Assembly (NCBI GenBank): GCA_964461025.1 | Contig: CAYWSE010000007.1 | Location: 1,260-65,259, forward strand | Length of the DNA stretch: 64,000 bases | Reading direction: 5' to 3' | From: an uncultured Sphaerobacteraceae bacterium | GTDB taxonomy: Bacteria > Chloroflexota > Chloroflexia > Thermomicrobiales > UBA6265 | Part shown: piece after piece, positions 18,150-32,517 of the stretch | Layout of the letters: each line of letters begins with the position of its first letter | Numbering within the stretch: the stretch's first letter is position 1 | Notes under the pieces: model-generated | The model's input: only the letters and a program-made list of their open reading frames with translations | Told to the model about the DNA's origin: nothing | Databases searched by the model: none | Position numbers and translations under genes: made by a program

Positions 18150-18178
18150 TTGACACAGTTTCCGCGTCTCCATACAAT
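18150..18178 (+). promoter_or_regulatory. Consensus sigma-70-type promoter for the gntR-led operon
   Basis: TTGACA (18150-18155), 17 nt, TACAAT (18173-18178). Confidence 0.6.
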
Positions 18179-18181: not shown

Positions 18182-18197
18182 TGTAAGACATCTTACA
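18182..18197 (+). promoter_or_regulatory. Palindromic GntR-type operator candidate
   Basis: TGTAAGA-CA-TCTTACA is a perfect 7-bp inverted repeat starting 4 nt after the -10. It fits the GT..AC half-site logic of GntR/FadR operators. Confidence 0.5.
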
Positions 18198-18212: not shown

Positions 18213-19001
18213 GTGGTTGCTGGCGCGAACCCCAACTCCACCAATGGGAACCAACGAGTCGAAGTGCTCGGGCCAATTCCAACGGTCTCGCTGGTGCCGG
18301 AAGTGCACAACCGGTTGCAGCAGTACATCGCCGAAAACCACCTGCAACCGGGCGATCGCCTGCCATCTGAGTCCGCTCTGGCAGAGGCGATGGGCGTGGG
18401 CCGTCCCCTGATACGCGAGGCGCTGCGAGGACTGGAAACGGTTGGACTGATCGAAACGCGCAAAGGCGTCGGCCGGTTCGTCCGTGCGTTCGATGTCGAG
18501 TCCTATCTCGGTCACTTCACGTCCGACGTGCTCGCTCATTCCTTTTCGGTCAACGATTTGGCCGAGGCGCGCTGTCTCCTCGAGATCGCATCGGTCAGCA
18601 ACGCGGTCGAGTTGCTCACCGACGACGATTGCCAGCAGATTGCCGCGTATATCGACACCATGCGGCGAAATGCAGAGGAAGGCATGAGAGACTCAGACAG
18701 CGACATCGGTATGCACCGGGTGATCATGAACCGCGCCGACAACCGGATCATTGCAGCGCTCCTCGATGCCGTCTACACCCTGGGAAATGTCGTTGATGCG
18801 GCGCAATCGCAAGAAATGCGCGAGCAGGATTTCAAAGAACACGAGAGAATTGCGGAAGCAGCCTATCAGCGAGATGGAGAAGCCGCGAGAGCGGCGCTCA
18901 TTGCGCATTTCGAGACCACCGCGTCGCGTGTCGGGTTCCGTCCACTCTGGCGGAATCTGAACAGAAAGGAGAGCGCCGGCTTTGCACCTGTCGCTGGGTA
19001 G
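18213..19001 (+). CDS. GntR/FadR-family transcriptional regulator
   Basis: Winged-helix segment LQQYIAENHLQPGDRLPSESALAEAMGVGRPLIREALRGLETVGLIETRKGVGRFV, then a helical FCD-like C-terminal domain. The start is GTG 18213 (GAGGA 8 nt upstream), because the track start at 18150 lies on the -35 box. Confidence 0.8.
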   Translation: MVAGANPNSTNGNQRVEVLGPIPTVSLVPEVHNRLQQYIAENHLQPGDRLPSESALAEAMGVGRPLIREALRGLETVGLIETRKGVGRFVRAFDVESYLGHFTSDVLAHSFSVNDLAEARCLLEIASVSNAVELLTDDDCQQIAAYIDTMRRNAEEGMRDSDSDIGMHRVIMNRADNRIIAALLDAVYTLGNVVDAAQSQEMREQDFKEHERIAEAAYQRDGEAARAALIAHFETTASRVGFRPLWRNLNRKESAGFAPVAG

Positions 19002-19071
19002 AGCAGCGACGCAACTCTTCAACCTTTGGCTCAAATGAGCGGCTGTATTCGTCGACAACGAGGAGAATGGC

Positions 19072-20751
19072 ATGGAAAAGGCAAGACTTGGAATCGACAC
19101 GCTCATTGCTGGCGCGGCATCAGGTGAGATGTCCCGTCGCGACATCATCAAGGGTGCGGCGGCGCTCGGCATGGGCGCCACGTTCGGCATCGCACTGGCG
19201 GGCGCTTCGGGCGTTGGCGCCCAGGAAGGCATGACGCTGACATTCGACGCCGGCGCGACGCAAGGCGGCGGCGGTCGCCCCAACACCGAGCACCCGGCGT
19301 ATAGCTTCATCATTAACGGCGGCAGCCAGTTCGAGATCAACCGGATGGTCGATGCACGATTAGTGACCCTCTCTGCCGACCTTCAGGAGTGGGTCGGCGA
19401 TCTCGCCGAAAGCTGGGAAGTCGTCGACGACGTCTACACGTTCAAGCTGCGTGAGAATGCCGTCTGGCACGATGGTACGCCGGTGACCGCAAAGGACGTC
19501 GTCTTCACGATCAATCTTCTCACCGATCCGGCGACGACCTCCCGCTGGGGATCGTCGTTCCGCAACGTTGTCGGGTATGCCGAGGCACAGGAAGCCGAGA
19601 CGCCGACGTCGCTGACCGGCGTCACCGCACCGGACGACTACACCGTGCAGATCGAACTGGCCCAGGCCGATTCCGGCATGCTGTCCGGTTTCATCTTCAT
19701 TAACATCCTGCCCGAGCACGTGCTGGGAACAGCCGACCGGGCCACGATCACCGAACTGCCCTACTGGACAACCTCTGAGCGCGTCGGCGCCGGGCCGTTC
19801 AAGTTCGTGCAGTTGGTGGAAGGCGAGCGCGTCGAGCTGGTGGCTCACGAGCAGTACCATCACGGCGCTCCGGCGGTCAAGAATCTGAATCTCCTCTTCT
19901 TCGCCAGTGCCGCGACCTCGCTTGCCGCGCTGCAGGAAGGGTCGAACCTCGTGGCGCCAATGTCGGTGGCCGAGCTGGAGCTTGTCGAGGGAACGGAAGG
20001 CGCTGAGGTTGTCGGCTTTCCCGCCGGGGTCGGCGTGATCTTCTACAACACATTGCAGCCCGAGCTCAATGACAAGCGTGTCCGTCAGGCGATGGCTTAT
20101 GCGATCGACAAGGTGACGATCTGCGAAACACTCTTCCAGGGTTACGCCAGTCCGGTATCGACTGAGATTCCGTACGTCACGTGGGCACAGCCAGACGATG
20201 CCAATCCATACGATTACGACCCAGAAAAAGCCAAGGAGCTCCTCGCGGAGGCTGGCTGGACTGGCGAGCGAACGCTTGGCTTCTGGTACTACTACACCGA
20301 CCCAATCACCGCGCTGGTGATGGAAGCAATGCAGCAGTATCTTGCCGCCGTCGGCATCAACACCGAGTTGAAGTTCGACGATGGCTCAGGCGTGCGCACG
20401 CAGGAGATCGCCGACAAGACGTGGGATATGACCTATGGCTCGTTCGGCGCGCAGCCATCACCGGCCAACCTGACGGCCGTCTGGGGTCCTCCTGGCGAGG
20501 TGACCTACGGTTGGCTGAACGACGACTTCAACGCCGAGATGGACGCCGCATTGCTCACCTACGACCGGGACGAGCAGGCCGTCCACTATCAGAATGCAAT
20601 CCGCATTCTGAACGAAGAGTCGCCCTCAGTCTGGCTGTACGACCGTCGGAATTTGATCGCCCTGAACTCAGCCAGACTGCAGAACTCGGTGTGGGGACCT
20701 GGGCACATCTACTGGGCCAACCGCGCATTCGAGTGGACAGTCGCCGAGTAA
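19072..20751 (+). CDS. ABC transporter substrate-binding protein, family 5 (peptide/opine/oligosaccharide type), Tat signal
   Basis: Twin-arginine leader SRRDIIKGAAALGMGATFGIALAGASGVGAQ. Family-5 core YTFKLRENAVWHDGTPVTAKDVVFT. Confidence 0.85.
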   Translation: MEKARLGIDTLIAGAASGEMSRRDIIKGAAALGMGATFGIALAGASGVGAQEGMTLTFDAGATQGGGGRPNTEHPAYSFIINGGSQFEINRMVDARLVTLSADLQEWVGDLAESWEVVDDVYTFKLRENAVWHDGTPVTAKDVVFTINLLTDPATTSRWGSSFRNVVGYAEAQEAETPTSLTGVTAPDDYTVQIELAQADSGMLSGFIFINILPEHVLGTADRATITELPYWTTSERVGAGPFKFVQLVEGERVELVAHEQYHHGAPAVKNLNLLFFASAATSLAALQEGSNLVAPMSVAELELVEGTEGAEVVGFPAGVGVIFYNTLQPELNDKRVRQAMAYAIDKVTICETLFQGYASPVSTEIPYVTWAQPDDANPYDYDPEKAKELLAEAGWTGERTLGFWYYYTDPITALVMEAMQQYLAAVGINTELKFDDGSGVRTQEIADKTWDMTYGSFGAQPSPANLTAVWGPPGEVTYGWLNDDFNAEMDAALLTYDRDEQAVHYQNAIRILNEESPSVWLYDRRNLIALNSARLQNSVWGPGHIYWANRAFEWTVAE

Positions 20752-20774
20752 AGGCGCACGCAACGTGAATCGCG

Positions 20775-20798
20775 GGGAGGAGAGTCGACTCTCCTCCC
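20775..20798 (+). terminator. Perfect 10-bp stem-loop between the binding-protein and permease genes (partial terminator or mRNA stabiliser)
   Basis: GGGAGGAGAG-TCGA-CTCTCCTCCC, 24 nt after the stop of 19072..20751. The downstream sequence is only moderately T-rich. Confidence 0.45.
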
Positions 20799-20886
20799 TG
20801 CTTCCACCGTCGTTTGCTCTTCCATTGATCTTTGCAAAGCACGACACCGACCGTCTCGCATGAACAGGGTGCCGGGAATCTGAGGC

Positions 20887-21843
20887 GTGACAACCTATCT
20901 CATCCATCGTTTGCTCCATGCCATCACGATCATGCTTGGCATCAGCATTCTCGTTTTCGCCTTCGTCGAGCTGGCCCCGGGCGATGCGATCGATGCGATG
21001 ATGCCTCCCGAAACCTTCGCGACTCCGGAGGCGAAAGAAGCAGCGCGCGAGCGGCTGGGGCTGAATGACCCAGCGCCACTGCGTTATGTGCAGTGGCTCG
21101 GCCGGGCTGTCACCGGCGATCTCGGCTACTCGCTGACTTCGCGGCAACCGGTCACCGACATCATCATGGTTCGGCTTCCGAAAACACTTCAGCTGGTCGG
21201 CACCGCAATGGTTTTCTCGATCATCGTGGGAGTGTCGACCGGAATCATCTCGGCACTTCGCCAATACACCTGGATCGACTACGCCGCGACCTTTTTCTCT
21301 TTCTTCTGGTTGTCCGTGCCGGGATTCTTTCTCGGGTTGATGATGATCTATCTATTTGCCGTGAAATTGAACTGGTTTCCTGTCTTCGGCGCATCGTCGC
21401 CGGGCGCCGACTACCCGATTCTCGACCGCCTGCATCATCTGGTCCTGCCTTCCGTCGTTATCGGGCTCGATTTGGCCGCGGCGCTGACGCGCTACACCCG
21501 CGCCAGTCTGTTGGAGGTCATGCGAGCCGACTACATGCGAACCGCCCGCGCCAAAGGTTTGAAAGAGCGCATCGTCATTGTCCGTCATGGATTGAAGAAC
21601 GCCTTGATCCCGATCATCACTGTCGTCGCCTTTCGCATGCCATACCTGATCAGCGGCGCGGTGGTCATTGAAACCGTTTTCCAGTGGCCCGGCCTGGGAT
21701 TGCTGACCCTCAACGCCGCCAACCAGAAAGACTATCCGCTGGTGCTGGCCCTTGCCCTGGCCGTGACCATCATCGTCGTCGTCAGCAGCTTTCTCGCCGA
21801 CATTGCCTACAGCATCGTCGATCCAAGGATTCGGATCGGATGA
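20887..21843 (+). CDS. ABC transporter permease (DppB/OppB-like)
   Basis: GTG start. Typical N-terminus YLIHRLLHAITIMLGISILVFAFVELAPGD and EAA-loop region YMRTARAKGLKERIVIVRHGLKNALIPI. Confidence 0.85.
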   Translation: MTTYLIHRLLHAITIMLGISILVFAFVELAPGDAIDAMMPPETFATPEAKEAARERLGLNDPAPLRYVQWLGRAVTGDLGYSLTSRQPVTDIIMVRLPKTLQLVGTAMVFSIIVGVSTGIISALRQYTWIDYAATFFSFFWLSVPGFFLGLMMIYLFAVKLNWFPVFGASSPGADYPILDRLHHLVLPSVVIGLDLAAALTRYTRASLLEVMRADYMRTARAKGLKERIVIVRHGLKNALIPIITVVAFRMPYLISGAVVIETVFQWPGLGLLTLNAANQKDYPLVLALALAVTIIVVVSSFLADIAYSIVDPRIRIG

Positions 21844-22739
21844 GCGCTCTCGCGTCGACCTCCGCGCTTACCTCGCCCGATACGGCGACGCTGACCCGCG
21901 TACGCCAGCGGGCGAGCTTCTGGAAGCGTCTGGCCAGACATCGCGTCGCGCTGGTGAGTCTTTTCTTCCTGGCGTTCATGGGTTTGGCTGCGCTGCTGAC
22001 GCCCTACGTCTCGCCATACGATCCCTATGCCATGAGTCTCGGGGAAGGGGGCAAAACGCCGAGTCTGGAGCACCCTCTTGGCACAGACAAACTCGGCCGG
22101 GACACGTTGACGCGCGTCTTTGTAGGCGGCAGGGTGTCGATTGCCGTCGCCCTGAGTGCCGTCGCCATCAGCTCTTCGCTCGGCACCGTGCTGGGGCTCA
22201 TCGCTGGTTTTCGCGGGGGATGGGTCGATGCCCTCATCATGCGTGTCACCGACGTGTTCATGGCATTCCCAATCTTCGTGCTGCTGATCGTCCTGGTGTC
22301 GATGCTCGGTTCCAGCGCGAAGAACATCGTGCTGATCATCGGCTTGCTTAGCTGGATGGGTGTTGCGCGGCTGGTGCGAGGGCAGGTGCTTTCGGTGATG
22401 AACGAGCCGTATATCGAATCGGCGACGTCGACCGGAGCCCGTTCGAGTCAGTTGCTTCTGAGGCATGTCCTGCCGAACAGCTACATCCCGATCGTCGTTG
22501 CCAGCACCCTTGGCGTGGCGAATGCCATGTTGCAGGAAGCAGCGTTGAGCTTCCTCGGTCTGGGCATTCAGCCGCCCACCCCGTCCTGGGGAAACATGCT
22601 GAACTCCGCTCAATCTCTTCAGGTGTTGGTGAATGAACCGTGGGTCTGGATTGGGCCCGGGCTCGCAATTGCCCTGACGGTGCTGGCGATCAACTTCCTT
22701 GGAGACGGTCTGCGCGACGCACTCGACCCGCACGCCTGA
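21840..22739 (+). CDS. ABC transporter permease (DppC/OppC-like)
   Basis: ATG 21840 overlaps the upstream stop (ATGA). Motifs HPLGTDKLGRDTLTRVFVGGR and YIESATSTGARSSQLLLRHVLPN. The track's 21684 start is an out-of-context Arg-rich extension. Confidence 0.85.
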   Translation: MSALASTSALTSPDTATLTRVRQRASFWKRLARHRVALVSLFFLAFMGLAALLTPYVSPYDPYAMSLGEGGKTPSLEHPLGTDKLGRDTLTRVFVGGRVSIAVALSAVAISSSLGTVLGLIAGFRGGWVDALIMRVTDVFMAFPIFVLLIVLVSMLGSSAKNIVLIIGLLSWMGVARLVRGQVLSVMNEPYIESATSTGARSSQLLLRHVLPNSYIPIVVASTLGVANAMLQEAALSFLGLGIQPPTPSWGNMLNSAQSLQVLVNEPWVWIGPGLAIALTVLAINFLGDGLRDALDPHA

Positions 22740-22775
22740 ACGGCGACGGCATTTGACTGACTGGAGTCACATCAC

Positions 22776-24353
22776 GTGTTCGATACAGTGATCAGGAACG
22801 GATCGATTGTCGATGGCTCTGGCGCGGTAGCCGCGTTCAGGGCCGACGTCGGGATTCGCGACGGTCAGATCGGCGCAATCGGGCAACTCGCGGAAGATGA
22901 GGCTCGTGAGATCATCGATGCGACCGGTTTGACGGTCGCACCGGGGTTCATCGACGTCCACATCCATTCGGAAATCGCGCTGCTCACCCCGGGCAACCCC
23001 GGCCGGTACGGTGCTTTGAAGCAAGGCGTGACGACGCAGCTTCTCGCTCCGGACGGTTTCGGTTGGGCGCATTTGAACGATGACGAACGCGCCGAAATGT
23101 GGGAGTACACGGCGTTCTCGACCGGCAAGGCCGATCTCGGCCCTCCCTGGCCGCATGCTGCCGACTATCTGGCGCTCTTCGATGGCAACACGCCGGCGAA
23201 TGTCGTTCCCCAAATTCCTCATCTGCCGATCCGTCAGGCGGTGATGGGTTGGGAGTCGCGCGCCGCGACGGAGGATGAAATTTCCGGTATGAAGGGGCTC
23301 GTCGAGGAGTGGCTCGACGCCGGCGCTGTCGCGTTCAATACCGGACTCGACTATCAACCCGTCGCCTACGCGGACACACATGAATTGGTCGAGCTCAGCA
23401 GGATGGCCGCGGAAGCGGGTGCGATCTACGCCGCGCACATTCGCTACGGCATTCTCGGTCGCGAGGGGGCGTGGCGAGAAACGTTCGCCATCTCCGAACA
23501 GGCCGGCATTCCGGTCCACTTTTCGCATGAAAACGTCGATGACGAGACCCGTCCCCTGCTCGAGGAAGCAGTGGGACGGGTCGATCTGAGCTTCGAGTCG
23601 TATTGCTACCCAGCGGGATGTACCCACCTGGCCCAGATGCTGCCGACCTGGGCGCAGGCCGGTGGTCCGGATGCGGTCGTTGAGCGATTGCAGGACCGGA
23701 ACGTTCGGGAAGCGCTGACTGCCTACCTCGAAGACCGGTTGACGATCGACGAAAGCCGGCCCGCCAAGCTCGTGATCGCCGCCAACCAGAGCGGTCAATA
23801 CATCGGACGTTCGCTCGCTGACGTCGCTTCCGAGAAGTCATTGCCGATCGGTGAAGCGGCCATCGAGATGCTGATCGACGAGCATCCGTATGCGCTGATG
23901 GTTTTTCACCGCCGCATGACGCCAGAGCAGAATCGCGAGCGGGTCCGCGAAACGATCGCCCATCCATTGATGATGGTGGCCAGCGACGGCATTTATCACG
24001 GCAGCTTCAGTCACCCGCGATCGAACGGCTGTTTCGCCCAGGCGCTCCGTTTGGGTTGGCGCGAGCTTGGCGCCGTCACCCTCGAACAGGCGGTTCACAA
24101 GATGAGTGGGTTCCCGGCGACGCGATTCAAGGTTGCCGGCCGCGGTTTCTGTCGGGACGGCTATGCCGCCGATCTCGTGATCTTCGACGCCGACACTGTT
24201 GCGGACGGCGCCACCTGGGAAGATCCGCTACGGGGACCGATCGGTGTCTCGCGAGTGATGGTGAATGGCCAGTGGGTTGTTGTCGACGGCGAGCCGACCG
24301 GAAATCTGCCGGGTCAGGTGCTGAGACGGCAGGACTGGGTGGCGCCGGCATGA
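22776..24353 (+). CDS. Amidohydrolase, N-acyl-D-amino-acid deacylase (D-aminoacylase)-like
   Basis: FDTVIRNGSIVDGSGAVAAFRADVGIRDGQIGAIG...APGFIDVHIHSE is the typical D-aminoacylase N-terminus with the HxH metal site. Also SDGIYHG and DLVIFD near the C-terminus. GGAG lies 9 nt upstream of the GTG. Confidence 0.75.
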   Translation: MFDTVIRNGSIVDGSGAVAAFRADVGIRDGQIGAIGQLAEDEAREIIDATGLTVAPGFIDVHIHSEIALLTPGNPGRYGALKQGVTTQLLAPDGFGWAHLNDDERAEMWEYTAFSTGKADLGPPWPHAADYLALFDGNTPANVVPQIPHLPIRQAVMGWESRAATEDEISGMKGLVEEWLDAGAVAFNTGLDYQPVAYADTHELVELSRMAAEAGAIYAAHIRYGILGREGAWRETFAISEQAGIPVHFSHENVDDETRPLLEEAVGRVDLSFESYCYPAGCTHLAQMLPTWAQAGGPDAVVERLQDRNVREALTAYLEDRLTIDESRPAKLVIAANQSGQYIGRSLADVASEKSLPIGEAAIEMLIDEHPYALMVFHRRMTPEQNRERVRETIAHPLMMVASDGIYHGSFSHPRSNGCFAQALRLGWRELGAVTLEQAVHKMSGFPATRFKVAGRGFCRDGYAADLVIFDADTVADGATWEDPLRGPIGVSRVMVNGQWVVVDGEPTGNLPGQVLRRQDWVAPA

Positions 24354-25441
24354 ACGCGAGACTGCGGACCGTCATTGTCGGCCTGAATCACTACCACGTC
24401 ACCGGCTGGGTCGAGTCTCTGGCCGCATTTCAGGATGCCATCGAGATCGTCGGTCGGTATGACCCCGATCCGGCACGTGAGTCGGCGGATGCGCCAGACT
24501 TCTCCGATCCGAATCTCTCCCAGGCCTTCCCAGCCTGGCTCTCGGAAGTGCCATTCTGGAGCGATCTCGACGCCATGATCGCCTCGGTCCGCCCCGAGCT
24601 GGCGCTCATCACGTTGCCGAATGTCGCCGTTCCGGATGCGGTTGCCCGGCTCGGCGCCACAGGAACGCACCTGCTCGTCGACAAGCCCGGCGGAGCGAAT
24701 GCCGTCGATGCGGCCGCGGCCATGAAGACTGCGCGCGATCATGGCGCGAAGGTCGCGGTGGCGTTCACACGACGGCACGGTCATCCCTGGCGGCAGGTCG
24801 CAAGGGAGATCGAGTCCGGACGCCTGGGCCGCGTCATGACGGTCGAAGCGGTGTTCACTACCTCGTCAGTCGTCGTTCGTAATCCCGACAATCACATCTT
24901 CGACAAGTCACTGATGGGCGGCGGCATTCTCAGCTGGCTCGGCGTCCATGACGTCGATTTGATCCACTGGCTGACCGGCGAACGGATGGACACTGTCCAG
25001 GCCATGACCGCCACAGCCACCTCCGCCGAAATCGACGTCGAGGACACGATTTCCATCGCATTCCGTCTCAAGGGCGGCGCGCTTGGCACGATGCACTTTG
25101 CGTATGCGCTGCCGCGACAGGGCGGCGAGGGCTATGTGGCGATACGTGGCACGAATGCGTCGGTGCGTATCGACGCCAGTGGCGCAACGACCTGGATCGG
25201 GGCGGGAACGGCGGTAGATCCTCTCCTCACGGAGAACATCACAAGTGAATCGATTCGACTGCCGGGCTACGGAACCGTCGGTTCTCTAATCGTTCGCGAC
25301 CTGCTCGACGCCATCGCCGAAGACCGGGATCCCAGGGCGACCGGCGAGGATGCCGTCGCGGCGCTGCAGGTGATCGATGCGGCATATGCCTCGGCGTCTC
25401 AATCCGGCAGGCGAGTGACCATCGATTGGGGGGAACTGTGA
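24350..25441 (+). CDS. Gfo/Idh/MocA-family oxidoreductase (atypical N-terminal dinucleotide motif)
   Basis: ATG 24350 overlaps the upstream stop (ATGA). It starts MNARLRTVIVGLNHYHVTGWVESLAAF. The C-terminal alpha/beta dimerisation domain is typical of the family. It is a paralog of 38169..39254. Confidence 0.75.
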   Translation: MNARLRTVIVGLNHYHVTGWVESLAAFQDAIEIVGRYDPDPARESADAPDFSDPNLSQAFPAWLSEVPFWSDLDAMIASVRPELALITLPNVAVPDAVARLGATGTHLLVDKPGGANAVDAAAAMKTARDHGAKVAVAFTRRHGHPWRQVAREIESGRLGRVMTVEAVFTTSSVVVRNPDNHIFDKSLMGGGILSWLGVHDVDLIHWLTGERMDTVQAMTATATSAEIDVEDTISIAFRLKGGALGTMHFAYALPRQGGEGYVAIRGTNASVRIDASGATTWIGAGTAVDPLLTENITSESIRLPGYGTVGSLIVRDLLDAIAEDRDPRATGEDAVAALQVIDAAYASASQSGRRVTIDWGEL

Positions 25442-26364
25442 CCGAAACACTGAAGGGTGTCTGGGTCGCAATGCCGACGCCATGGCAGTCCGATGGAACG
25501 GTCGATTCGGGTGTCGTCCGGGAGATCGTAGCGCGCTACGCCGCAGCTGGACTCGACGGCGCCTACACCACGGGCACCGACGGCGAGCTGCATGTTATGG
25601 AGCTCGACGAGCTCGCCCAGCTCGTGCCCCCATTTGCGGAGGCAGCGTCTGCAGCCGGACTGCCGGTGCAAGTAGGTTGCGGTTGGCAACACACCAAGGG
25701 CGTCATCGACCGCGGCCGGGTCGCGGCGGCAAACGGTGTGGGGATCATTCAGCTCACCCTCCCCTCCTGGATTCCACTCAACGACGACGAGCTGTTGCGC
25801 TTCTATGGCGCGATCCAGACCGCGCTACCGGAAACACTCCTGATTCATTACAACATCTTGCGAAGCGGCCGTATGTTGACAGGGCGGGATTATCTCCGTG
25901 TGCTCGAGGTGGCGCCGAATCTGGCCGGCAGCAAGCATACGGGCGGCAGCACAGCGGCACTCTCCGAAATCATCGACGCCACGCCCCATCTCGCCCACTT
26001 TGCCGTCGACGCCGATATCGTGACCGGGGCGATGGTCGGATCACCCGGCTATTACAGCTTCATCGCCAATCTCTCACCCGGCTTCGCGTTACAGATGATG
26101 GCCGCATGCGACAGGAAAGACTGGGACGAAGCAGCGAAGTACGGCGTCTACTGCCGCCGGTTTTTCCGCAGCTGGCTGGCGCTCTGTCCAGATATCAATT
26201 CGTCGTCCGCGCTCGGGAAGATCGCGACGCGAGCCGGGATCTGTCCAGACATGCCTCTGGCGATCAAGGAGCCCTACATCAGCGGCGCGGAACGACATGT
26301 CAACGAGCTGCGCGAACTGGTCGCGCGGGAGTTTCCTGAGCTGGCGGAGGGCCAGCTGCGGTAA
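25438..26364 (+). CDS. DHDPS/N-acetylneuraminate-lyase-family class I aldolase
   Basis: GTGA overlap with the upstream stop. Motifs YTTGTDGE (GTTGE-like), HYNI (Tyr) and LAGSKHTGGS (Schiff-base Lys). Confidence 0.75.
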   Translation: MTETLKGVWVAMPTPWQSDGTVDSGVVREIVARYAAAGLDGAYTTGTDGELHVMELDELAQLVPPFAEAASAAGLPVQVGCGWQHTKGVIDRGRVAAANGVGIIQLTLPSWIPLNDDELLRFYGAIQTALPETLLIHYNILRSGRMLTGRDYLRVLEVAPNLAGSKHTGGSTAALSEIIDATPHLAHFAVDADIVTGAMVGSPGYYSFIANLSPGFALQMMAACDRKDWDEAAKYGVYCRRFFRSWLALCPDINSSSALGKIATRAGICPDMPLAIKEPYISGAERHVNELRELVAREFPELAEGQLR

Positions 26365-26374
26365 GTCACGAGGG

Positions 26375-27424
26375 ATGGGAGCGCACGTGTACCGATTTGG
26401 CATCGTGGGATTGAGCTGGATCACATCCGACCCGTCAGGAGAAGCGACGCATCGGGTGCTCGGGACGGCCATGCCCGGCACACACCTTTCCGGCATGGCC
26501 AATCTACCGGAGGTTCAGGTCGTTGCCGGTTGCGACATCAGCGCCGACGCCCGGCAGCTTTTCGTCGAGCGCTGGGACGCCACCTGGCCCGGACTGGCAG
26601 TCTTCGATGACTACCACCGCATGCTGGACGAGCTCGATCTCGACATCGTTTGTGTGGCGACGCCCGACAATCTGCACGCCGAGGTCGTCATCGCAGCGGC
26701 AAACGCCGGCGTCAAGGGCATCTTCTGCGAGAAGCCGATGTCGACGCACACTGATGAGGTCGATGAGATGATCGCCGCCCTCGATGCAAACGGCGTCGTC
26801 TGCAGCGTCAATCACACACGACGCTGGATGCCGAACTATGTTGCGGCGCGCGAGGTCATCCGGTCGGGAGCGATAGGCAACGTCGCGACGGTGACGGGCA
26901 GACTGGGCGGCGAACGAGCGATGCTCTGGCGCAACCACAGTCATATGATCGATCTGCTCAATTACTTCGCCGAGGGCACGCCCGAGTGGGTCATTGGTGA
27001 GCTGGAAACCGGATTCGAGGACTACGGCCTGCGCTACCACGGCGACGGCGGACGCGACGCCGCGCTCGAACCCGGCGCGAACGCCTACATCGCCTGGGAC
27101 AACGGCGTCCGCGGCTTTCTGGTTGGAGAAAAGCGCGGACTCTCCGCGTTGAACGTCGAGATCAGCGGCGCAACGGGCCGGGTTGTTGTCAACGACCAAA
27201 CGGCGTTTCTCGATCAATTGACCGAGAGCGGGCTCAAATCGAGCCCAATCATTCCCAGGTACTCAATGGGTGGCATGCAGGCAGCGGTTGCCGATCTGAT
27301 CCATGCCGTTTCAACTGGAGAGACGCCGCAATCGCCGCCGTCGGAAGCGCGGAAAACCGTGGCGATCATCGACGGCATTCTGGCGTCGCAAGCGAACGGC
27401 AATGTGCGCGTGGCGGTTCCCTGA
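26375..27424 (+). CDS. Gfo/Idh/MocA-family oxidoreductase
   Basis: RFGIVGLSWI...VVAGCDI...VCVATPDNLHAEVVIAAANAGVKGIFCEKPM is the canonical family N-domain including EKP. The start is ATG 26375 or GTG 26387. Confidence 0.8.
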   Translation: MGAHVYRFGIVGLSWITSDPSGEATHRVLGTAMPGTHLSGMANLPEVQVVAGCDISADARQLFVERWDATWPGLAVFDDYHRMLDELDLDIVCVATPDNLHAEVVIAAANAGVKGIFCEKPMSTHTDEVDEMIAALDANGVVCSVNHTRRWMPNYVAAREVIRSGAIGNVATVTGRLGGERAMLWRNHSHMIDLLNYFAEGTPEWVIGELETGFEDYGLRYHGDGGRDAALEPGANAYIAWDNGVRGFLVGEKRGLSALNVEISGATGRVVVNDQTAFLDQLTESGLKSSPIIPRYSMGGMQAAVADLIHAVSTGETPQSPPSEARKTVAIIDGILASQANGNVRVAVP

Positions 27425-27425
27425 G

Positions 27426-28562
27426 ATGCTGACCGTGATCGATCGCGGAATCGTGTTCGATGCAACGACTGCTCCACTCGAGCAGCGCTCGAACGCGTTC
27501 ACGTCGCTCACGGCAACCAGCGAGGGGTATCTCTGTTCATTCCGCTCAGCATCTGGCCGTGACGATCCCGGCGGAAGGCTTCGCGTCATGTCGAGCGACG
27601 ACGGTAAGACCTGGTCGACACTTGACGAGGGCCTCATATACGAAATCGACGGCATTGTCGGCGACATGTATGCCGGGTATTTCACCGAGCTCGAACCTGG
27701 TTTGGTGACGGGCGCCTTCGTTTGGGTCGACCGCTCCAATCCAGATTTGTCGTTCGTCAACCCGGAAACCGCCGGCATTCTGCCGACCAGGAATCTGCTG
27801 GCGTCGTCGACAGACGGCGGGCGGAACTGGAAAGGCTGGCGTGAGGTCGATCTCGGCCCGGAGGAAGGCTGCACCTTGACAGGTCCGGTTTTCGAGTTTG
27901 CCGAGGGCGTCCTCGGACTGCCGTACGAAACGTGGAAGTCGTACAACGACACAAGCCCCGGTCACCACACCGCCTCGTTGCGGTTGTCTCGCGACGGCGG
28001 AGCTACCTGGAATGAACGTCAGGTTGTTGCAGCCGATCCGCACGGTGGAACGCTGTATTGGGATCAGCGGATCGCGGTGAATGGCGATTCCGGCGACGCC
28101 TGCGCGATGTTCTGGACGCACAATCGCCCTCTCGGCCGCGATATCGACAACACGATCGCCTGGTTGGCGTCTGGCCAGACTGAGTGGAGCGCGCCTGTAA
28201 GCTGCAACTGGCCAGGACAGCACTGCCAGCCACTCTGGCTGGGCGGCGATCGTCTGCTGGCAGTGCACGTTCAACGTGGTCCGCAGAGCGGCATCGTGGC
28301 TCGACTCAGTGAGGATTTTGGCCACACCTGGAACGCAGATCAAACGACGCAGATCTATCTCCACAACGCTTTTCATAGTGAGGATCAAGCGGAGAGCTTC
28401 GAAGCATTCTGGCTTGAAATGATGACCTGGGAATTCGGTCATCCACGGGCTGTGCAGATGAAGGATGGCGACGTGCTGGTGGTCTGGTACGCCGGTGACA
28501 GCAACGCCACCAGCGTCCACTGGGCACGGCTCTCTGTCCCACCGGCAGGAGAAGCATCATGA
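27426..28562 (+). CDS. BNR/Asp-box repeat beta-propeller protein (sialidase-fold-like), no signal peptide
   Basis: Four Asp-boxes: SSDDGKTWS, STDGGRNWK, SRDGGATWN, SEDFGHTWN. I saw no N-terminal hydrophobic leader and no FRIP motif. The ATG is 1 nt after the upstream stop. Confidence 0.7.
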   Translation: MLTVIDRGIVFDATTAPLEQRSNAFTSLTATSEGYLCSFRSASGRDDPGGRLRVMSSDDGKTWSTLDEGLIYEIDGIVGDMYAGYFTELEPGLVTGAFVWVDRSNPDLSFVNPETAGILPTRNLLASSTDGGRNWKGWREVDLGPEEGCTLTGPVFEFAEGVLGLPYETWKSYNDTSPGHHTASLRLSRDGGATWNERQVVAADPHGGTLYWDQRIAVNGDSGDACAMFWTHNRPLGRDIDNTIAWLASGQTEWSAPVSCNWPGQHCQPLWLGGDRLLAVHVQRGPQSGIVARLSEDFGHTWNADQTTQIYLHNAFHSEDQAESFEAFWLEMMTWEFGHPRAVQMKDGDVLVVWYAGDSNATSVHWARLSVPPAGEAS

Positions 28563-29815
28563 CTGCACCACGGGCGACCGATCTTGCCATCAACGGCGGT
28601 TTGCCAGTGCGAACATCGCCGTTGCCCGGCCATAGTCGCGCAATGGGCGACGAGGAGCTCGAGGAGCTCGCCGAAGTCGTGCGTTCAGGTCAGCTTGGAC
28701 GTCACCAGGGCACGAAGGTCAAAGCGCTCGAGAAGACGTTCGCTGAGCTCTACGGTGTCCGGCATGCCATCGCGGTGTCGTCTGGTTCCGCCGCGGTTCA
28801 TACTGCAATCGCCGCCATCGATCCCGAACCGGGTGATGAGATCATCACGACGCCGTGCAGCGATTTCGGCACGGTCATGGGGATTCTCTTCCAGAACGCC
28901 ATACCGGTCTTCGCCGATCTCGATCCCCAGACATTCTGCATCGATCCCGCCAGCGTCGAGTCGCTGATTACCCCGCGCACCCGGGCGATCATGCCGGTTC
29001 ATCTCTTCGGCGGTCCGGCGGACATCGATGCATTGGTCGATATCGGTCACCGTCATGGCATTCCCGTCATCGAGGATTGCGCGCAGGCACAGCTGACCGA
29101 GGTGAGTGGACGCCTGGCTGGCACGATTGGCGATATCGGTTGTTTCAGCTTCAACAATACCAAGCATCTCAATTGCGGCGAGGGCGGCATCGTTGTCACG
29201 AATGACGATGATCTCGCCCGCCGCATGCGGCTCTTCGCAGACAAAGCCTGGCCGCGCGAGGAAGCGGGCCGGTTCAGTCTCTTTCTGGGCCAGAACTACC
29301 GGCTGAACGAGCTGGAGGGAGCGGTCGCCCTGGTCGGCCTGCGCCGTTTGAAAGAGAACGTCGCGGCGCGACGGCACGCGATCGGAGCGATCCTCGCGGC
29401 AATCGAAGGGATGCCGGGAGTGGAGATTCCCACCTATCCGGCTGGCGCCGAATCGAGCTACTGGATTTTGCATCTTTTCGTCGATCAGCAGTTGGATGCG
29501 GACGAAGTCGCGGCGGCGCTGCAGGCGGAAGGCATTCCCTTCACCGCGAAGTATGTGACACCGCTCTACACCTGGCCCGTTTTGCGCGATGCCCAAACGT
29601 ACGGCAAGTCACGATTCCCGTTCGATTCTCCGTACACCGACCGTCCTTTCGACTACGCGCCTGGGCTCTGTCCAGTTTTCGAAGCGCGGCGGGAAAAGCT
29701 CATTCTCCTCTCAGTCGATGAACAGTGGACAGACGAGGACGCTGCAGACATCGCCAACGCGCTGCGCAAGGTCCTTCCGGCGTTCATGAACGCGGAGAAC
29801 ATCGATGCTGATTGA
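28559..29815 (+). CDS. DegT/DnrJ/EryC1/StrS-family PLP aminotransferase
   Basis: ATGA overlap with the upstream gene. Family motifs: HAIAVSSGSAAVHTAIAAI, PGDEIITTP, IPVIEDCAQA, FSFNNTKHLNCGEGG (PLP-Lys region). Confidence 0.8.
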   Translation: MTAPRATDLAINGGLPVRTSPLPGHSRAMGDEELEELAEVVRSGQLGRHQGTKVKALEKTFAELYGVRHAIAVSSGSAAVHTAIAAIDPEPGDEIITTPCSDFGTVMGILFQNAIPVFADLDPQTFCIDPASVESLITPRTRAIMPVHLFGGPADIDALVDIGHRHGIPVIEDCAQAQLTEVSGRLAGTIGDIGCFSFNNTKHLNCGEGGIVVTNDDDLARRMRLFADKAWPREEAGRFSLFLGQNYRLNELEGAVALVGLRRLKENVAARRHAIGAILAAIEGMPGVEIPTYPAGAESSYWILHLFVDQQLDADEVAAALQAEGIPFTAKYVTPLYTWPVLRDAQTYGKSRFPFDSPYTDRPFDYAPGLCPVFEARREKLILLSVDEQWTDEDAADIANALRKVLPAFMNAENIDAD

Positions 29816-31430
29816 CGTCAACGCCTCGTTCGGAGGTCGCGAGTCGATTCAGCGGTATGGAGTCGATACCCTGGAGCGTGAGCTCGACGCCACTCCGTAC
29901 GCTCTGGCGTTCGTCAGCGCGAACGAAGGCGTGTTCGATCAGCAAACGGCGAACGATCACGTCTTCGCGTTGTGCGAAGCCAATGAGCGCTGGTTGCCAG
30001 CGGCGACGCTCCATCCCGGCGACACCTTCTCCTGGCGGGAAGAACTCACTCGCAGTCTCGAGGCCGGGGTCAGGCTCTTTCGCATCAACCCGGTGAAGAG
30101 CGGATGGGCGGTCGATTCGATTCTGCTGTCTCTGCTCATCGACAGGCTGGCAGGTACCGGCGCGGCGCTCCTGGTCGAGTCTGCGCCCGCCGGGCTCCCG
30201 TCCGCTGTCGTGGTTCGAACGTCGCAAGCCGGCGTACCGGTGATTTTCTCGGAAGCGCGGTATTTCCCGCTTACGGAGCTGATCCCGCTCTCGCAGCATT
30301 ATCAGGATGTCTTCATCGAAACGAGCCGTTTGACGAGTCCCGGCGGGATCGCACTCTGTGTGCGAGAGATTGGCTCGCATCGCCTCCTCTACGGTTCCGG
30401 CGCGAACCGGTATCCGGCGAACGTTGCCTGGCAGCTGCTCTGCCGAGCCGATATCGCGCCAGCCGAGCGCGAAGCGATCGCCTGGCGTAATGCAGCAACG
30501 CTCTTCAATCTCGATCCCGCTCCCCTTTTCTTCACTCAAACCAACGCGGAGTCAAACGGGACCGGCCCTGCATCGCGAAAGCACAAGAACGCGACTGTGC
30601 AACACGCCATGTCGGAACTGCGCCAGGCCGATCCGATTGAACGTGAAACCAGCCAGTTTCCTCCCGCAATCGACATCCACCTGCACGACAAGTTCGCCGG
30701 CGCGCCCTTTCCGCGGTTCTCAGCCGAAGGATACGAAGCGGAATTGCGACGCAATCAGATCGTTGCCGGCGTGTCGTCGTCCGCAACAGCAATCTTCCAC
30801 GATCTGAAGCGAGGCAACGATGAAAATGAAGCGCTGCTTTCATCAGTGCCGGGGCTCAAGGGATATGTGGTCGTCGATCCCCGCTATCTCGATGACTCGA
30901 TTCAGGAACTCGAGCGGCTGCACACGTCTGATTTCTGGGTTGGTGTTAAGATCCACTGCGCTCACGCGAAAACGCTGACCGGATCGGCGGCAATGACAGA
31001 GCTCATGGCCGCCATCGCCGAGCAACGCAAGCCACTGCTCGTTCATCCGTTAGGAGCGGATTGGCCGGAAGCGCTCTGCATGCATGCGGCCCGGCACCCC
31101 GAGTTGCCGATCATCGCCGCCCACGCAGGCTACGGCGATGCACCGCATCCAACACACGATGCCGCGCTTCGCCTCTCGCAAGCGCCGAACATTGTCATCG
31201 AGTTCTGCAGCACCTATCTGGCGCCAGGAGCGATCCGGCGCGGCATCGAGGCGGTTGGGGTGGATCGCGTGCTGTTCGGCAGCGATTTCCCGCTCCTCTC
31301 GCTCGAGTACATGCGCGTCGCGTACGAGTCCGCCGAACTCTCGGCTGCCGAATTAGACGCAATCTACCTTCGGAATGCGGCCAGGCTCTTCCCGTCGTTG
31401 GGAGCCATCATCGAGGAGGTCGCCAGGTAA
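29805..31430 (+). CDS. Tandem amidohydrolase-2 (metal-dependent TIM-barrel hydrolase/decarboxylase) protein; the N-terminal copy lacks the HxH site
   Basis: N-half: MLIDVNASFG...LLYGSGANRYP...AWRNAATLFNL. C-half: AIDIHLHDKF...IIAAHAGYG...VLFGSDFPLL...IYLRNAARLF. It overlaps the upstream gene by 11 nt. Confidence 0.65.
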   Translation: MLIDVNASFGGRESIQRYGVDTLERELDATPYALAFVSANEGVFDQQTANDHVFALCEANERWLPAATLHPGDTFSWREELTRSLEAGVRLFRINPVKSGWAVDSILLSLLIDRLAGTGAALLVESAPAGLPSAVVVRTSQAGVPVIFSEARYFPLTELIPLSQHYQDVFIETSRLTSPGGIALCVREIGSHRLLYGSGANRYPANVAWQLLCRADIAPAEREAIAWRNAATLFNLDPAPLFFTQTNAESNGTGPASRKHKNATVQHAMSELRQADPIERETSQFPPAIDIHLHDKFAGAPFPRFSAEGYEAELRRNQIVAGVSSSATAIFHDLKRGNDENEALLSSVPGLKGYVVVDPRYLDDSIQELERLHTSDFWVGVKIHCAHAKTLTGSAAMTELMAAIAEQRKPLLVHPLGADWPEALCMHAARHPELPIIAAHAGYGDAPHPTHDAALRLSQAPNIVIEFCSTYLAPGAIRRGIEAVGVDRVLFGSDFPLLSLEYMRVAYESAELSAAELDAIYLRNAARLFPSLGAIIEEVAR

Positions 31431-31496
31431 ACGTAAGTGCAAAGACGAAATCGCGAAAACGTGTTTCGCGGCGAAGAACACTGTTGGAGGGAAGCG

Positions 31497-32255
31497 ATGA
31501 ACATCAAGAACACTGCCAAAGAACGCATGTTGAAGGGTGAACCGGCATTCGGCTGGGCGCTGGGTCTGGGGTCCGCCTTCGCCGGTGAGCGTCTCGCTGG
31601 AACCGGCATCGATTTCGTCATGATCGACGGTCAGCATGGTTCCTGGGGCGTGGACAGCACGTTTGCGGCGTTCCTGGCCATCGCCGCGGGCGGCGCGACG
31701 CCGATGGCGAGAGTGCCAAAGAACGACTATACGGTGATCGGCAAGTTTCTCGATGAAGGAGCCCTCGGCATCATCGTCCCGATGGTCCACACCGCTGACG
31801 ACGCCAAACACGCCGCCGACGCCTGCCGCTTTCCCCCAACTGGGGCACGCTCATGGGGATGGGGCCGGGCCGGAGCTTATGGCGACGACTACCCATTGGC
31901 CGTCAATGACGAGATCTTCCTGGCCGTGCAGATCGAGAGTGCCGACGCGGTGAAGAACGCGGAGGCGATTCTTGCCACCGAGGGCGTCGATGGATGCTGG
32001 ATCGGTCCGTCCGACCTGCAACTGTCATACGGCCACATGCCCTGGTCTGACGAAGGCGTCAAGGTTTTGAATGCGGCGCTCGAGCAAATCGAAGCCGCCG
32101 CCAAATCGACTGGCAAGATCCTTGGGTTCGCCACCAACGGTCCAGAGCACGCCCGATCGCTGGCCGATCGGGGGTATCGGTTCCTGACCGCCGGAAGCGA
32201 CATCGGATTCATGCTCTCAGGCGCCGCGGCGGGGCTGAAAGTCATGCGCGGCTAA
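31497..32255 (+). CDS. HpcH/HpaI-family 2-keto-3-deoxy-acid aldolase
   Basis: GGAGGG RBS. MNIKNTAKERMLKGEPAFGWALGLGSAFAGERLAGTGIDFVMIDGQHGS...VPMVHTADDAKHAADACRFPPTGARS...VQIES is typical of the family. Confidence 0.8.
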   Translation: MNIKNTAKERMLKGEPAFGWALGLGSAFAGERLAGTGIDFVMIDGQHGSWGVDSTFAAFLAIAAGGATPMARVPKNDYTVIGKFLDEGALGIIVPMVHTADDAKHAADACRFPPTGARSWGWGRAGAYGDDYPLAVNDEIFLAVQIESADAVKNAEAILATEGVDGCWIGPSDLQLSYGHMPWSDEGVKVLNAALEQIEAAAKSTGKILGFATNGPEHARSLADRGYRFLTAGSDIGFMLSGAAAGLKVMRG

Positions 32256-32517
32256 TGTGCGGAACATTGTCACGACCGGTTTGAAATCCGGTGAACAGGC
32301 GGGTACCATGGCATCGCAACAATGTGATTCTTGCCAATACGGAGGGCCGTTCGTGACAGCCGAATCAGGCTATCCGGTGGTGTGTTTGCACCGGAAGTCA
32401 ACTGGAGAGAGGAGGCCAAGCCGCGAATGACGGGAATGTGTTCTGCAATGTGAAAGAGCGTCTTTCCATTGTTACAGACACACCACGATTACTGGGCATA
32501 GACCAAAGGAGTGAACG

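Follow-up and report, generated by a model that had tools for sequence, protein, structure and literature searches.

A composite twelve-gene cluster of a soil Thermomicrobiales bacterium with a conserved transporter-lyase core, a variable tail and a possible role in the catabolism of acidic sugar derivatives

The plus strand of a 64-kb stretch of DNA from a soil member of the Thermomicrobiales (Chloroflexota), hereafter called the window, carries a tight cluster of twelve genes at positions 18213-32255, which is the subject of this study. A listing of open reading frames (ORFs) combined with Pfam annotation places twelve consecutive plus-strand ORFs at, or within a few codons of, the coordinates given in a preliminary description of the locus, and the packed gene row is present with the domains and overlaps that had been ascribed to it. 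The first gene encodes a GntR-family regulator with an FCD domain (18213..19001; Pfam GntR 2.5e-18, FCD 2.4e-15), followed by a family-5 substrate-binding protein (SBP; SBP_bac_5, Pfam 2.4e-79) with a twin-arginine-like signal (19072..20751) and by two ABC permeases, one DppB-like (20887..21843; BPD_transp_1 3.3e-40) and one DppC-like (21840..22739; BPD_transp_1 1.6e-37, with OppC_N). Then come a D-aminoacylase-like deacylase (Amidohydro_3) with an Asp-His-His site (22776..24353), an atypical GFO/IDH/MocA oxidoreductase (GFOa, 24350..25441), a class-I Schiff-base lyase of the DHDPS/NanA family (25438..26364; DHDPS 5.5e-21), a second GFO/IDH/MocA oxidoreductase (GFOb, 26375..27424) and a BNR_2 six-bladed propeller, predicted to be cytoplasmic (27426..28562; Pfam and an AlphaFold2 (AF2) model). 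The last three genes encode a pyridoxal phosphate (PLP)-dependent aminotransferase of the DegT/DnrJ/EryC1 family (28559..29815; Pfam 2.5e-91, 307 bits), a tandem double amidohydrolase-2 (29805..31430) and an HpcH/HpaI class-II 2-keto-3-deoxy-acid aldolase (31437..32255, probable start 31497; Pfam 5.3e-34, 118 bits).

Judged from its sequence, the cluster is a real and uncharacterised catabolic route, since none of its enzymes reaches the curated cut-off in an NCBIfam scan, in which the genes of the cluster and of a convergent operon downstream were scored against the curated equivalog cut-offs. Likewise, no description of the cluster was found in the literature on nonulosonic-acid catabolism, on Thermomicrobiales sialidases, on 5HX0 (Dfer_1899), on the best DegT matches in the PDB and on such combinations of enzyme families, which agrees with the earlier statement that no described pathway combines these enzymes. 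Metagenome-assembled genomes of Thermomicrobiales and other Chloroflexota, together with soil metagenomes, are the sources of the proteins closest to BNR, the DHDPS-like lyase and amidohydrolase-2. The genes are joined by four 4-nt overlaps (ATGA at 21840, 24350 and 28559, GTGA at 25438) and one 11-nt overlap (at 29805), all on the same strand and with remaining gaps of 1-135 nt. The gaps of 1-10 nt reported previously are indeed found before the GFOb gene (10 nt) and the BNR gene (1 nt), but the GntR-SBP, SBP-permease and permease-deacylase gaps are wider (70, 135 and 36 nt). The BNR gene starts at 27426 and encodes 378 aa, identical to database entry P0001. For the HpcH gene, ATG 31497, which has a GGAGGG ribosome-binding site, is a likelier start than GTG 31437, and the resulting length of 252 aa fits the 253-aa homologue in a related locus (L002; the loci compared are cited by such numbers throughout). 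The G+C content is about 60-62% across the window. A horizontal-transfer island was considered and set aside, as the G+C content of the cluster is uniform with that of its flanks.

A candidate sigma-70-type promoter (TTGACA-17 nt-TACAAT, 11 of 12 consensus positions) lies on the plus strand at 18150..18178, and immediately 3' of its -10 box follows an operator-like palindrome of 16 bp, TGTAAGACATCTTACA (18182..18197), the presumed GntR/FCD site and the sole perfect site of this kind in the window. When the regions upstream of the orthologous regulator genes of nine loci, which represent three operon arrangements (see below), were aligned, the -35 hexamer TTGACA proved invariant and at the same position in all nine; this hexamer and GT.AGACATCTT.CA are the only invariant blocks, and the surrounding DNA is unconserved. 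A single exact copy of the 14-mer GTAAGACATCTTAC, invariably just 5' of the GntR gene, is present in each of L001, L004, L005, L006, L009, L011, L083 and L084, and L003 and L085 possess it with one mismatch. The conserved -35 box and palindrome are a phylogenetic footprint of an auto-repressed GntR/FadR-type promoter, in which the palindrome would be bound by the regulator. The latter combines the winged helix-turn-helix and FCD domains of the GntR/FadR subfamily with a GT...AC palindrome at its own promoter; its best NCBIfam model is NanR (115 bits against a cut-off of 260 bits; 26% identity to E. coli NanR), followed by LldR, PdhR, ExuR and UxuR, all of them carboxylate sensors. Since relatives share no invariant element other than the -35 box and this palindrome, the GntR/FCD protein probably auto-represses the unit via the palindrome. 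The next conserved promoter occurs only past the HpcH gene (32281-32309), and the twelve genes are probably co-transcribed from the one regulated promoter, so that the single transcription unit of the preliminary description gains probability from gene packing and from the conserved promoter and operator. An Rfam scan of positions 17000-42500 with E-values up to 0.1 revealed no riboswitch or leader.

The organization of related loci was studied by tblastn of the window proteins against 167 loci, supported by gene calls with Pfam annotation, and four recurring arrangements (types A to D) were distinguished. Type A, the deacylase arrangement, is found in the window, L003, L004, L006, L009, L001/L005 and L090 (protein identity 57-89%) and has the order regulator-SBP-permease-permease-deacylase-GFOa-DHDPS-GFOb-BNR. 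What follows the BNR gene differs: amidohydrolase-2 and HpcH without DegT in L003 and L090, DegT only in L004, L006 and L008, and in L001 a foreign GntR/M24/SBP5 block between BNR and DegT. All three tail genes after BNR are found only in the window. The gene calls of L001/L005 (5320-8405) merge the deacylase and GFOa into a single protein of 893 aa and cut the DHDPS gene short at 134 aa; these fused and shortened calls are most likely assembly frameshift errors rather than real fusions. Type B (L011, L083 and L084) has a zinc-dependent alcohol dehydrogenase (ZnADH) and an FAH-family enzyme in the order regulator-SBP-permease-permease-ZnADH-GFOa-FAH-DHDPS-GFOb-BNR, without deacylase, DegT, amidohydrolase-2 or HpcH; at least 23 contigs are on record for the L083 lyase. 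A hybrid, L089, reads FAH-DHDPS-GFOb-BNR-DegT-amidohydrolase-2. Type C is a minimal version (L085), which retains the operator with one mismatch, the regulator (49% identity), the SBP (64%), the permeases (72-76%) and the DHDPS-like lyase (55%), and nothing beyond these. Finally, type D (L096, L010, L013, L091 and L092) has a different SBP5 transporter with a BNR homologue directly after it. A compact SBP5-permease-permease-BNR operon of this kind is found in the regions 766-12367 of L010 and 6302-11128 of L096; the one in L010 is flanked by an L,D-transpeptidase (YkuD) and an S11 DD-carboxypeptidase, and a homologue of the Asp-type deacylase (52%) is located on the opposite strand.

The tail genes are likewise found apart from the core. 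The DegT/amidohydrolase-2 pair occurs without related genes nearby in L168 (a contig that ends just upstream) and after GntR(-)|M24-SBP5-permease-permease in L169, and the double amidohydrolase-2 stands alone after a complete ABC transporter in L170. In L043, from the phylum Latescibacterota, the order is PhyH-PhyH-DegT-Amidohydro_2-GHL10-BNR-UxuA-double Amidohydro_2-GFO-DegT-PhyH-PhyH; this island (4149-20188), which also encodes a DUF6785/6784 membrane protein and has four PhyH-type dioxygenases, two DegT and two amidohydrolase-2 proteins (one of them duplicated), is possibly a large locus for amino-sugar catabolism. The gene orders compared here mark the operon as an evolutionary composite, with a conserved core and a mobile tail, rather than as one fixed pathway, and the deacylase and the aminotransferase as lineage-specific additions. 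Most likely, a first module consists of the regulator, the SBP5, the two permeases and the lyase, extended in the window by the deacylase, two GFOs and the propeller, and a second one of the DegT/double amidohydrolase-2 pair and HpcH, the pair having its own transporter and regulator elsewhere. The view of all twelve genes as one conserved pathway is not borne out, as relatives keep the genes from GntR to BNR while the tail varies, and some lineages have the ADH/FAH genes in place of the deacylase or keep just the transporter and the lyase. The proposal that synteny in relatives be checked therefore has a divided answer, with the part from GntR to BNR syntenic and DegT, amidohydrolase-2 and HpcH variable.

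In the lyase, the one enzyme retained by the minimal arrangement, G46/T/D/G49/E50 corresponds by alignment to the GxxGE of E. coli NanA, Y138 to its Tyr137 and K166 to its Lys165, and the equivalent residues of DapA align as well. The Schiff-base Lys, the catalytic Tyr and the GxxGE carboxylate loop of the DHDPS/NanA superfamily (Lys, Tyr and GTxGE in the preliminary description) are accordingly intact, and Schiff-base chemistry on a 2-keto acid is clearly predicted. DapA, NanA and the hydratase-aldolases are all equally distant from the protein (about 1e-12 to 1e-14); it reaches 56.8 and 46.5 bits with the NanA equivalog models (cut-offs 281 and 382 bits), and the DapA, KdgD and HpaI-like NCBIfam models score it about as high.

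The GFO oxidoreductases depart from the textbook Rossmann motif to different degrees. GFOa, assigned to the family by Pfam, was correctly called atypical, as it has VGLNHYH in place of GxGxxG, and it is a 49%-identical paralogue of GFOc, encoded in the convergent operon (38169-39272), with the HYH motif common to both. In these two proteins VGL(N/D)HYH(V/T)TGWVESL replaces the GxGxxG. The best PDB matches of GFOa are 3q2k and 3q2i (~1e-18), which we take to be WlbA enzymes, followed by glucose-fructose oxidoreductase. Presumably, these relatives of GFOa and GFOc are GFO enzymes with a tightly bound cofactor, an analogy that hints at redox-neutral chemistry. GFOb had been called canonical, which holds for its Rossmann domain (Pfam GFO_IDH_MocA 1.7e-20) but not for its motif, VGLSWIT; its gene is always directly 5' of the BNR gene, in the deacylase and ADH/FAH arrangements. 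The best NCBIfam model of all three GFOs is inositol 2-dehydrogenase, far under its cut-off. The likeness to NanOx/YjhC suggested earlier could not be substantiated: 6z3b/6z3c, which carry only the PDB title of a Gfo/Idh/MocA oxidoreductase and which we take to be NanOx of R. gnavus, match GFOb over residues 79-173 only, i.e. the Rossmann part (1.3e-11, about ninth in rank), and are not among the PDB matches of GFOa, so that neither GFO is specifically NanOx-like. A NanOx-type conversion of anhydro-sialic acid was set aside on account of this similarity at Rossmann level only.

The BNR protein has four SxDxGxxW Asp-boxes (residues 55, 127, 187 and 294), and its N-terminus is the first propeller strand in the AF2 model (pLDDT 91.8), without a signal peptide, both as described before. 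It has no sequence match in the PDB. The best Foldseek match of the model is 5hx0, of unknown function (TM-score 0.73), and the next ones are GH33 sialidases (TM ~0.65, E ~1e-11, 15% identity), with which it shares the predicted six-bladed propeller with Asp-boxes. The invariant Asp45 aligns with the acid/base Asp92 of Micromonospora viridifaciens sialidase. By contrast, the RIP arginine of that enzyme lies opposite A23-F24-T25 in a hidden Markov model alignment with ungapped extension, where Ala23 is at least 90% conserved; the wider family has xFPSL at this position without a conserved Arg, and R283 is its only invariant arginine. An analogy with sialidases is weakened by this Ala. The C-terminal half of the protein is not aligned by HMMER and contains a GHP motif (H338) where 5hx0 has GYP. 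The family is small, with 636 clusters at 50% identity among 1.84 billion representatives. Within 4.5 kb of the BNR gene in 68 distant loci, the neighbours are HpcH aldolases (21), a second BNR paralogue (15), GFOs, UxuA-like dehydratases and enolase-type dehydratases (10 each), PhyH dioxygenases (8) and DHDPS proteins (5), by which these loci appear as a sugar-acid neighbourhood.

The deacylase has its best PDB match in the D-aminoacylase 1m7j (5.5e-59, 204 bits) and is more distant from PpOngB, a sugar-acid deacetylase (1.7e-41, 146 bits). Compared with 1m7j, the HxH motif (H62/H64) and the equivalents of His220, His250, Asp366, Tyr283 and Arg377 are kept, i.e. HxH, the catalytic Asp and the Tyr and Arg that bind the alpha-carboxylate in D-aminoacylases. 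The Zn ligand Cys96 is replaced by Asp93 and Lys252 by Asn; every orthologue down to 48% identity has the Asp, among them those of distant Chloroflexota, and the Lys252 position is variable. The insertion domain of 1m7j (residues 288-383) is not alignable with the deacylase. A Cys-His-His site defines the subtype-V amidohydrolases, and in OngB and the D-aminoacylases Tyr, Arg and Lys bind the alpha-carboxylate of N-acyl-D-amino acids and of N-acetyl-glucosaminate (PMC12017989). With Asp-His-His in place of the subtype-V beta-site, the deacylase is, to all appearances, a new subfamily, and because the equivalents of Tyr283 and Arg377 are kept it probably still needs an N-acyl-amine beside a carboxylate.

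The DegT protein carries its PLP lysine in the motif FSFNNTK, as a fold-type-I enzyme, and scores below every NCBIfam equivalog cut-off. Its PDB relatives are sugar, inosose and Kdo-8-aminotransferases (~1e-50 to 1e-55), among them scyllo-inositol and 2-deoxy-scyllo-inosose aminotransferases (7b0d, 5w70), and it matches WbpE at 7e-44. The amidohydrolase-2 is duplicated, as previously noted: Amidohydro_2 (Pfam) matches two stretches, whose halves are 29% identical over 142 aa (E 4e-6), and the AF2 model shows two barrels with a disordered linker at residues 243-282. The N-terminal half reads IDVNAS and GSG and has lost the HxH motif and the Asp, and the C-terminal half, with IDIHLHD and GSD494, has all the PF04909 ligands (D290, H292, H294, H414, H440 and D494), which are invariant; the former is, by its residues, degenerate and the latter the presumptive catalytic half. 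No sequence match in the PDB and none in NCBIfam was found, and Foldseek retrieved ACMSD-type decarboxylases and LigI-like hydrolases at 12-22% identity. HpcH possesses the class-II aldolase motifs GARSWG, QIES and GPSD and scores 126-152 bits with the HpaI, GarL and RhmA models of NCBIfam, under their cut-offs. The 11-nt overlap of DegT and amidohydrolase-2 is kept in three contexts (L168 191-2990, L169 8749-11551 and the window, 28559-31430), which suggests that the two form an obligatory, translationally coupled enzyme pair.

The first SBP had been described as Tat-exported, for which its twin-arginine motif SRRDIIKG speaks; its TAT_signal match of 22.0 bits is narrowly below the cut-off of 22.7. 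Its PDB relatives bind peptides, haem or glutathione, and agrocinopine. The opine-binding AccA and AgaA match at ~1e-26, and 5z99, 5yyb and 5za4, titled 'putative ABC transporter periplasmic binding protein', which we take to be the sialic-acid binding protein SatA of Haemophilus ducreyi, are matched as well. Because relatives with different ligands all score between 1e-24 and 1e-32, the ligand, as far as sequence goes, is not assignable from the PDB relatives. A second, paralogous set of SBP5 and two permeases, assigned by Pfam, follows the cluster on the plus strand (SBPb 32518-34113, permeases 34214-35170 and 35163-36083); the identity between the two sets is 31% for the SBPs and 44-49% for the permeases. 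The SBP5 and two permeases of a Dpp/Opp-type importer are found here, and the two ATPases are not found in the window; nor do the orthologous operons of L083-L085 contain ATPase genes. Since both SBP5/permease sets and these operons are without them, shared ATPases encoded elsewhere must energise both Dpp-type importers in trans.

The SBPb set has a candidate promoter of its own (TTGAAA-17 nt-TACCAT, 32281..32309, plus strand) in the 262-nt gap before it, and this promoter recurs when the corresponding upstream DNA of L003, L006 and L090 is aligned with it. Among relatives whose DNA reaches as far as SBPb (L001, L003, L004, L006 and L090), the set trails the tail genes in each, with a gap of about 260 nt. 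A copy of the operator with one mismatch, GTCAGACATCTTAC, occurs on the minus strand at 12439-12452 in L004 and at 18054-18067 in L001/L005, where it overlaps the -10 region of the SBPb promoter. It is absent from this promoter in the window, L003, L006 and L090, and in the window no second operator with up to three mismatches was found near the SBPb promoter or the convergent operon. Because of this one-mismatch operator, the SBPb unit is predicted to belong to the same regulon in some relatives (L004, L001), and not detectably so in the window.

The convergent operon, on the minus strand and assigned by Pfam, encodes an alpha/beta hydrolase (36448-37119), an FAH protein (37230-38147), GFOc (38169-39272), a Zn-ADH (39251-40291) and GGT (40296-41963). 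The best NCBIfam model of the FAH protein is 2,4-didehydro-3-deoxy-L-rhamnonate hydrolase (175 bits against a cut-off of 500), and homologues of the ADH-GFO-FAH trio (37230-41963, minus strand, GGT first) are placed inside the operon in L011, L083 and L084. Further downstream on the plus strand (45286-47811) an 841-aa protein joins a fold-type-II PLP domain (PALP, residues 48-346) to a VanY D-Ala-D-Ala carboxypeptidase (674-803), and the start of its gene overlaps the end of an NTP-transferase gene (44180-45286). Divergently and directly upstream of the cluster, on the minus strand, are genes for an 821-aa STAND/MalT-like LuxR regulator (AAA, TPR and GerE; 14894-17359) and for a HAD-family hydrolase (17368-18177), the latter of which adjoins the operon in L003, too.

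Several known systems resemble the cluster in part. With nan clusters it has in common an FCD regulator for which NanR is the best model, a lyase with the NanA-type Lys, Tyr and GxxGE, a sialidase fold, GFOs and a family-5 SBP. However, all components are remote (NanR 115 vs 260 bits; NanA models 46-57 vs 281-382), the propeller has Ala at the position of the RIP arginine, NanK, NanE, NagA and NagB are missing from the window cluster, and the downstream chemistry would be oxidative and non-phosphorylative.

A deacylase-first route for N-acetyl-glucosaminate is provided by OngB and OngC (PMC9537276); it is akin to D-amino-acid catabolism and ends at a 2-keto-3-deoxy acid (PMC9537276, PMC12017989). 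The likeness consists in a D-aminoacylase fold, there used on an N-acyl amino-sugar acid, and in the catalytic Asp and His residues and the Tyr and Arg that bind the carboxylate, which are kept here. By contrast, the window deacylase is nearer to the D-aminoacylases than to OngB (204 vs 146 bits), has Asp for the Zn-binding Cys and Asn for the carboxylate-binding Lys, and is encoded in an operon without an OngC-type deaminase, RidA or KDG kinase (KdgK); transport is by an ABC system here and by an SSS symporter there. A D-Ser-dehydratase-like gene beside the deacylase occurs only in the distant locus L115. This locus (6092-19559; also L038, L118 and L120), from distant soil Chloroflexota, combines an Asp-type deacylase, a D-Ser-dehydratase-like PLP enzyme and an FMN-dependent dehydrogenase in an order that resembles OngB-OngC and adjoins genes for BNR, GGT, double amidohydrolase-2, enolase-superfamily and PALP proteins. 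An OngB-type pathway for oxidised chitin was set aside, there being no OngC or KdgK and the Cys being replaced by Asp.

The Weimberg and Dahms, L-rhamnose (LRA1-6) and L-fucose pathways resemble the cluster in their GFO dehydrogenases, amidohydrolase-2 lactonases, DHDPS and FAH enzymes and HpcH aldolases; the enzyme families of such non-phosphorylative oxidative sugar pathways are reviewed in PMC9795676. Unlike these, the operon has no aldonate dehydratase (IlvD, enolase or UxuA type) or semialdehyde dehydrogenase, possesses a deacylase, an aminotransferase and a sialidase-fold protein in addition, and has all scores under the equivalog cut-offs. The Weimberg and Dahms pentose routes were set aside for want of a dehydratase or aldehyde dehydrogenase in the operon. 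Finally, WlbA-type enzymes and a DegT partner form a keto-sugar/amino-sugar interconversion pair, and the best PDB matches of GFOa (3q2k/3q2i) and the match of DegT to WbpE (7e-44) recall the WlbA/WbpB and WbpE enzymes. Those enzymes, however, are biosynthetic and act on UDP-sugars, whereas the context here is catabolic and includes an importer; the similarity is only ~1e-18, and DegT is not a constant partner of GFOa. Inositol or rhizopine catabolism was set aside, as there are no Iol or Moc ring-opening genes. The system resembles a hybrid of a nan-type cluster, an OngB/OngC-like route and the non-phosphorylative sugar-acid pathways, and it is a member of none of them; in kind it is a substrate-specific catabolic ABC operon.

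We tentatively favour, at somewhat less than even confidence, a function in the uptake of a carboxylate-bearing sugar derivative, its Schiff-base cleavage to pyruvate and non-phosphorylative oxidative processing. The sugar-acid or amino-sugar theme of the preliminary description is the best fit to the enzyme inventory. A carboxylated sugar derivative is suggested by the FCD regulator and the carboxylate-binding residues of the deacylase, by three types of enzymes that cleave C-C bonds of 2-keto acids (class-I lyase, HpcH and FAH), and by the GFO dehydrogenases and the sugar-acid enzymes encoded near propeller genes. The lyase appears to be central: in the minimal operon L085 it is the one enzyme left beside the transporter, from which we infer that the imported compound or a near relative is its substrate, i.e. 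a 4-hydroxy-2-keto or ulosonic acid. The enzymes also recur together, with BNR, DegT, double amidohydrolase-2 and GFO in L043 and with the tail on an FAH-type core in L089. The unit would start at the sigma-70-type promoter and be repressed by its own GntR/FCD product via the 16-bp palindrome, which would overlap the transcription start. A 3-deoxy-2-ulosonic acid or an N-acyl amino-sugar acid would be imported and cleaved by the lyase into pyruvate and an (amino)sugar fragment, which would be handled without phosphorylation and oxidised by a GFO. The propeller may hydrolyse a lactone or glycoside, the deacylase would remove an N-acyl group beside the carboxylate, DegT would transaminate the freed amine, and a second aldol or FAH-type C-C cleavage would again yield pyruvate. 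Deacylase and DegT would in this scheme serve N-acylated or aminated variants of the substrate.

Several observations weigh against such a function. Family-5 SBPs and Dpp-type permeases belong most often to peptide systems, and the 64-kb window yielded no ATPase gene of an ABC importer. A sialidase-like role of the propeller is doubtful because its RIP arginine is missing, and the structural matches of the modelled amidohydrolase-2 fit lactonase and decarboxylase chemistry alike. Since a sugar-acid dehydratase, a kinase and an aldehyde dehydrogenase are missing from the operon, no complete route of a known type can be written. The ADH/FAH arrangement is without deacylase and aminotransferase, so that N-acylation does not belong to the conserved core. 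All relatives compared are metagenome-assembled or metagenomic sequences. Lastly, the DegT/amidohydrolase-2 pair is accompanied by other transporters in other loci and may therefore serve another substrate.

The last-named transporters lead to a doubtful alternative of some weight, namely that two or three independent catabolic systems lie side by side, with the genes from GntR to BNR for one substrate and DegT, double amidohydrolase-2 and HpcH, together with SBPb, for another; the tight BNR/DegT junction would then be a local fusion without meaning for a pathway. The tail genes do vary independently of the core: L169 has the DegT/amidohydrolase-2 pair together with a GntR regulator, an M24 peptidase and an SBP5 transporter of its own, L168 has the pair alone, and L170 has only the double amidohydrolase-2, placed after a complete ABC transporter. 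Moreover, the tail genes are immediately 5' of SBPb in L001, L003, L004, L006 and L090, and a separate promoter is conserved before SBPb. However, BNR and DegT overlap by 4 nt in the window, the order BNR-DegT-amidohydrolase-2 is found on an FAH-type core as well (L089), and BNR, DegT, double amidohydrolase-2 and GFO are together in another phylum (L043). In L004 and L001 the SBPb promoter bears the operator of the core, which links the units by regulation.

Salvage of peptide-like or cell-wall material (N-acyl-D-amino acids, gamma-glutamyl or D-amino-acid peptides, muropeptides), for which the 'sugar' enzymes would process the carbon skeletons, is unlikely. It would account for the Dpp/Opp-type SBP5 and permeases and for a deacylase nearer to D-aminoacylases (204 bits) than to OngB (146 bits), and would suit the GGT of the convergent operon, the VanY fusion at 45286-47811, the L,D-transpeptidase and S11 DD-carboxypeptidase that flank the transporter-BNR locus of L010 and the M24 peptidase accompanying the DegT/amidohydrolase-2 operon in L169. 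Yet three GFOs, a sialidase-fold propeller, two types of pyruvate aldolase and an FAH protein nearest to the diketo-deoxy-rhamnonate hydrolase model are not peptide-catabolic, the propeller-family neighbours are sugar-acid enzymes, and neither the ADH/FAH arrangement nor the minimal version contains a deacylase or peptidase.

Degradation of an aminocyclitol, inosamine or opine-like compound, with DegT as inosose aminotransferase, the GFOs as inositol-type dehydrogenases and an opine-type SBP5, is highly improbable. In its favour are the inositol 2-dehydrogenase model, which is best for the three GFOs though far under its cut-off, and the matches of DegT to 7b0d and 5w70 and of the SBP to AccA and AgaA (~1e-26). 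Against it, the Pfam annotation of the operon and its neighbours shows no IolE, IolD, IolB, IolC or Moc oxygenase, two pyruvate aldolases, an FAH protein and an FCD regulator of the carboxylate type are left unexplained, and DegT is dispensable in close relatives.

Within the favoured function, i.e. catabolism of a carboxylate-bearing sugar derivative, narrower proposals are weaker. Pseudaminic or legionaminic acid as substrate is compatible with the enzyme inventory but not specifically favoured by it, and we would give it only a slim chance. Equally improbable in our estimation is an undescribed non-phosphorylative route for ulosonic or nonulosonic acids (pseudaminic, legionaminic, KDN- or Kdo-type) in soil and sponge-associated Chloroflexota and their neighbours, with a new NanA-like lyase, a RIP-less propeller of a new catalytic class, an Asp-His-His deacylase, a catabolic DegT and HpcH/FAH enzymes; on that proposal pyruvate would be released and the (di)N-acyl-amino-deoxyhexose oxidised, opened by the propeller, deacylated, transaminated and split again.

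New in the present analysis are the promoter/operator footprint, the composite synteny, the absence of the RIP arginine and the Asp in place of the Zn-binding Cys. The modular organization carries a caution, in that a tightly packed operon in a single genome need not be a fixed pathway. The cluster draws attention to three subfamilies with atypical active sites, a RIP-less sialidase-fold propeller, a D-aminoacylase relative with Asp for Cys and an amidohydrolase-2 with one dead half, and it offers two handles for screening, the SBP for ligands and the predicted repressor, whose 16-bp operator is defined, for effectors. If the function favoured here is true, an abundant uncultured soil lineage would be able to degrade an acidic (amino)sugar by a route for which current annotation has no name.

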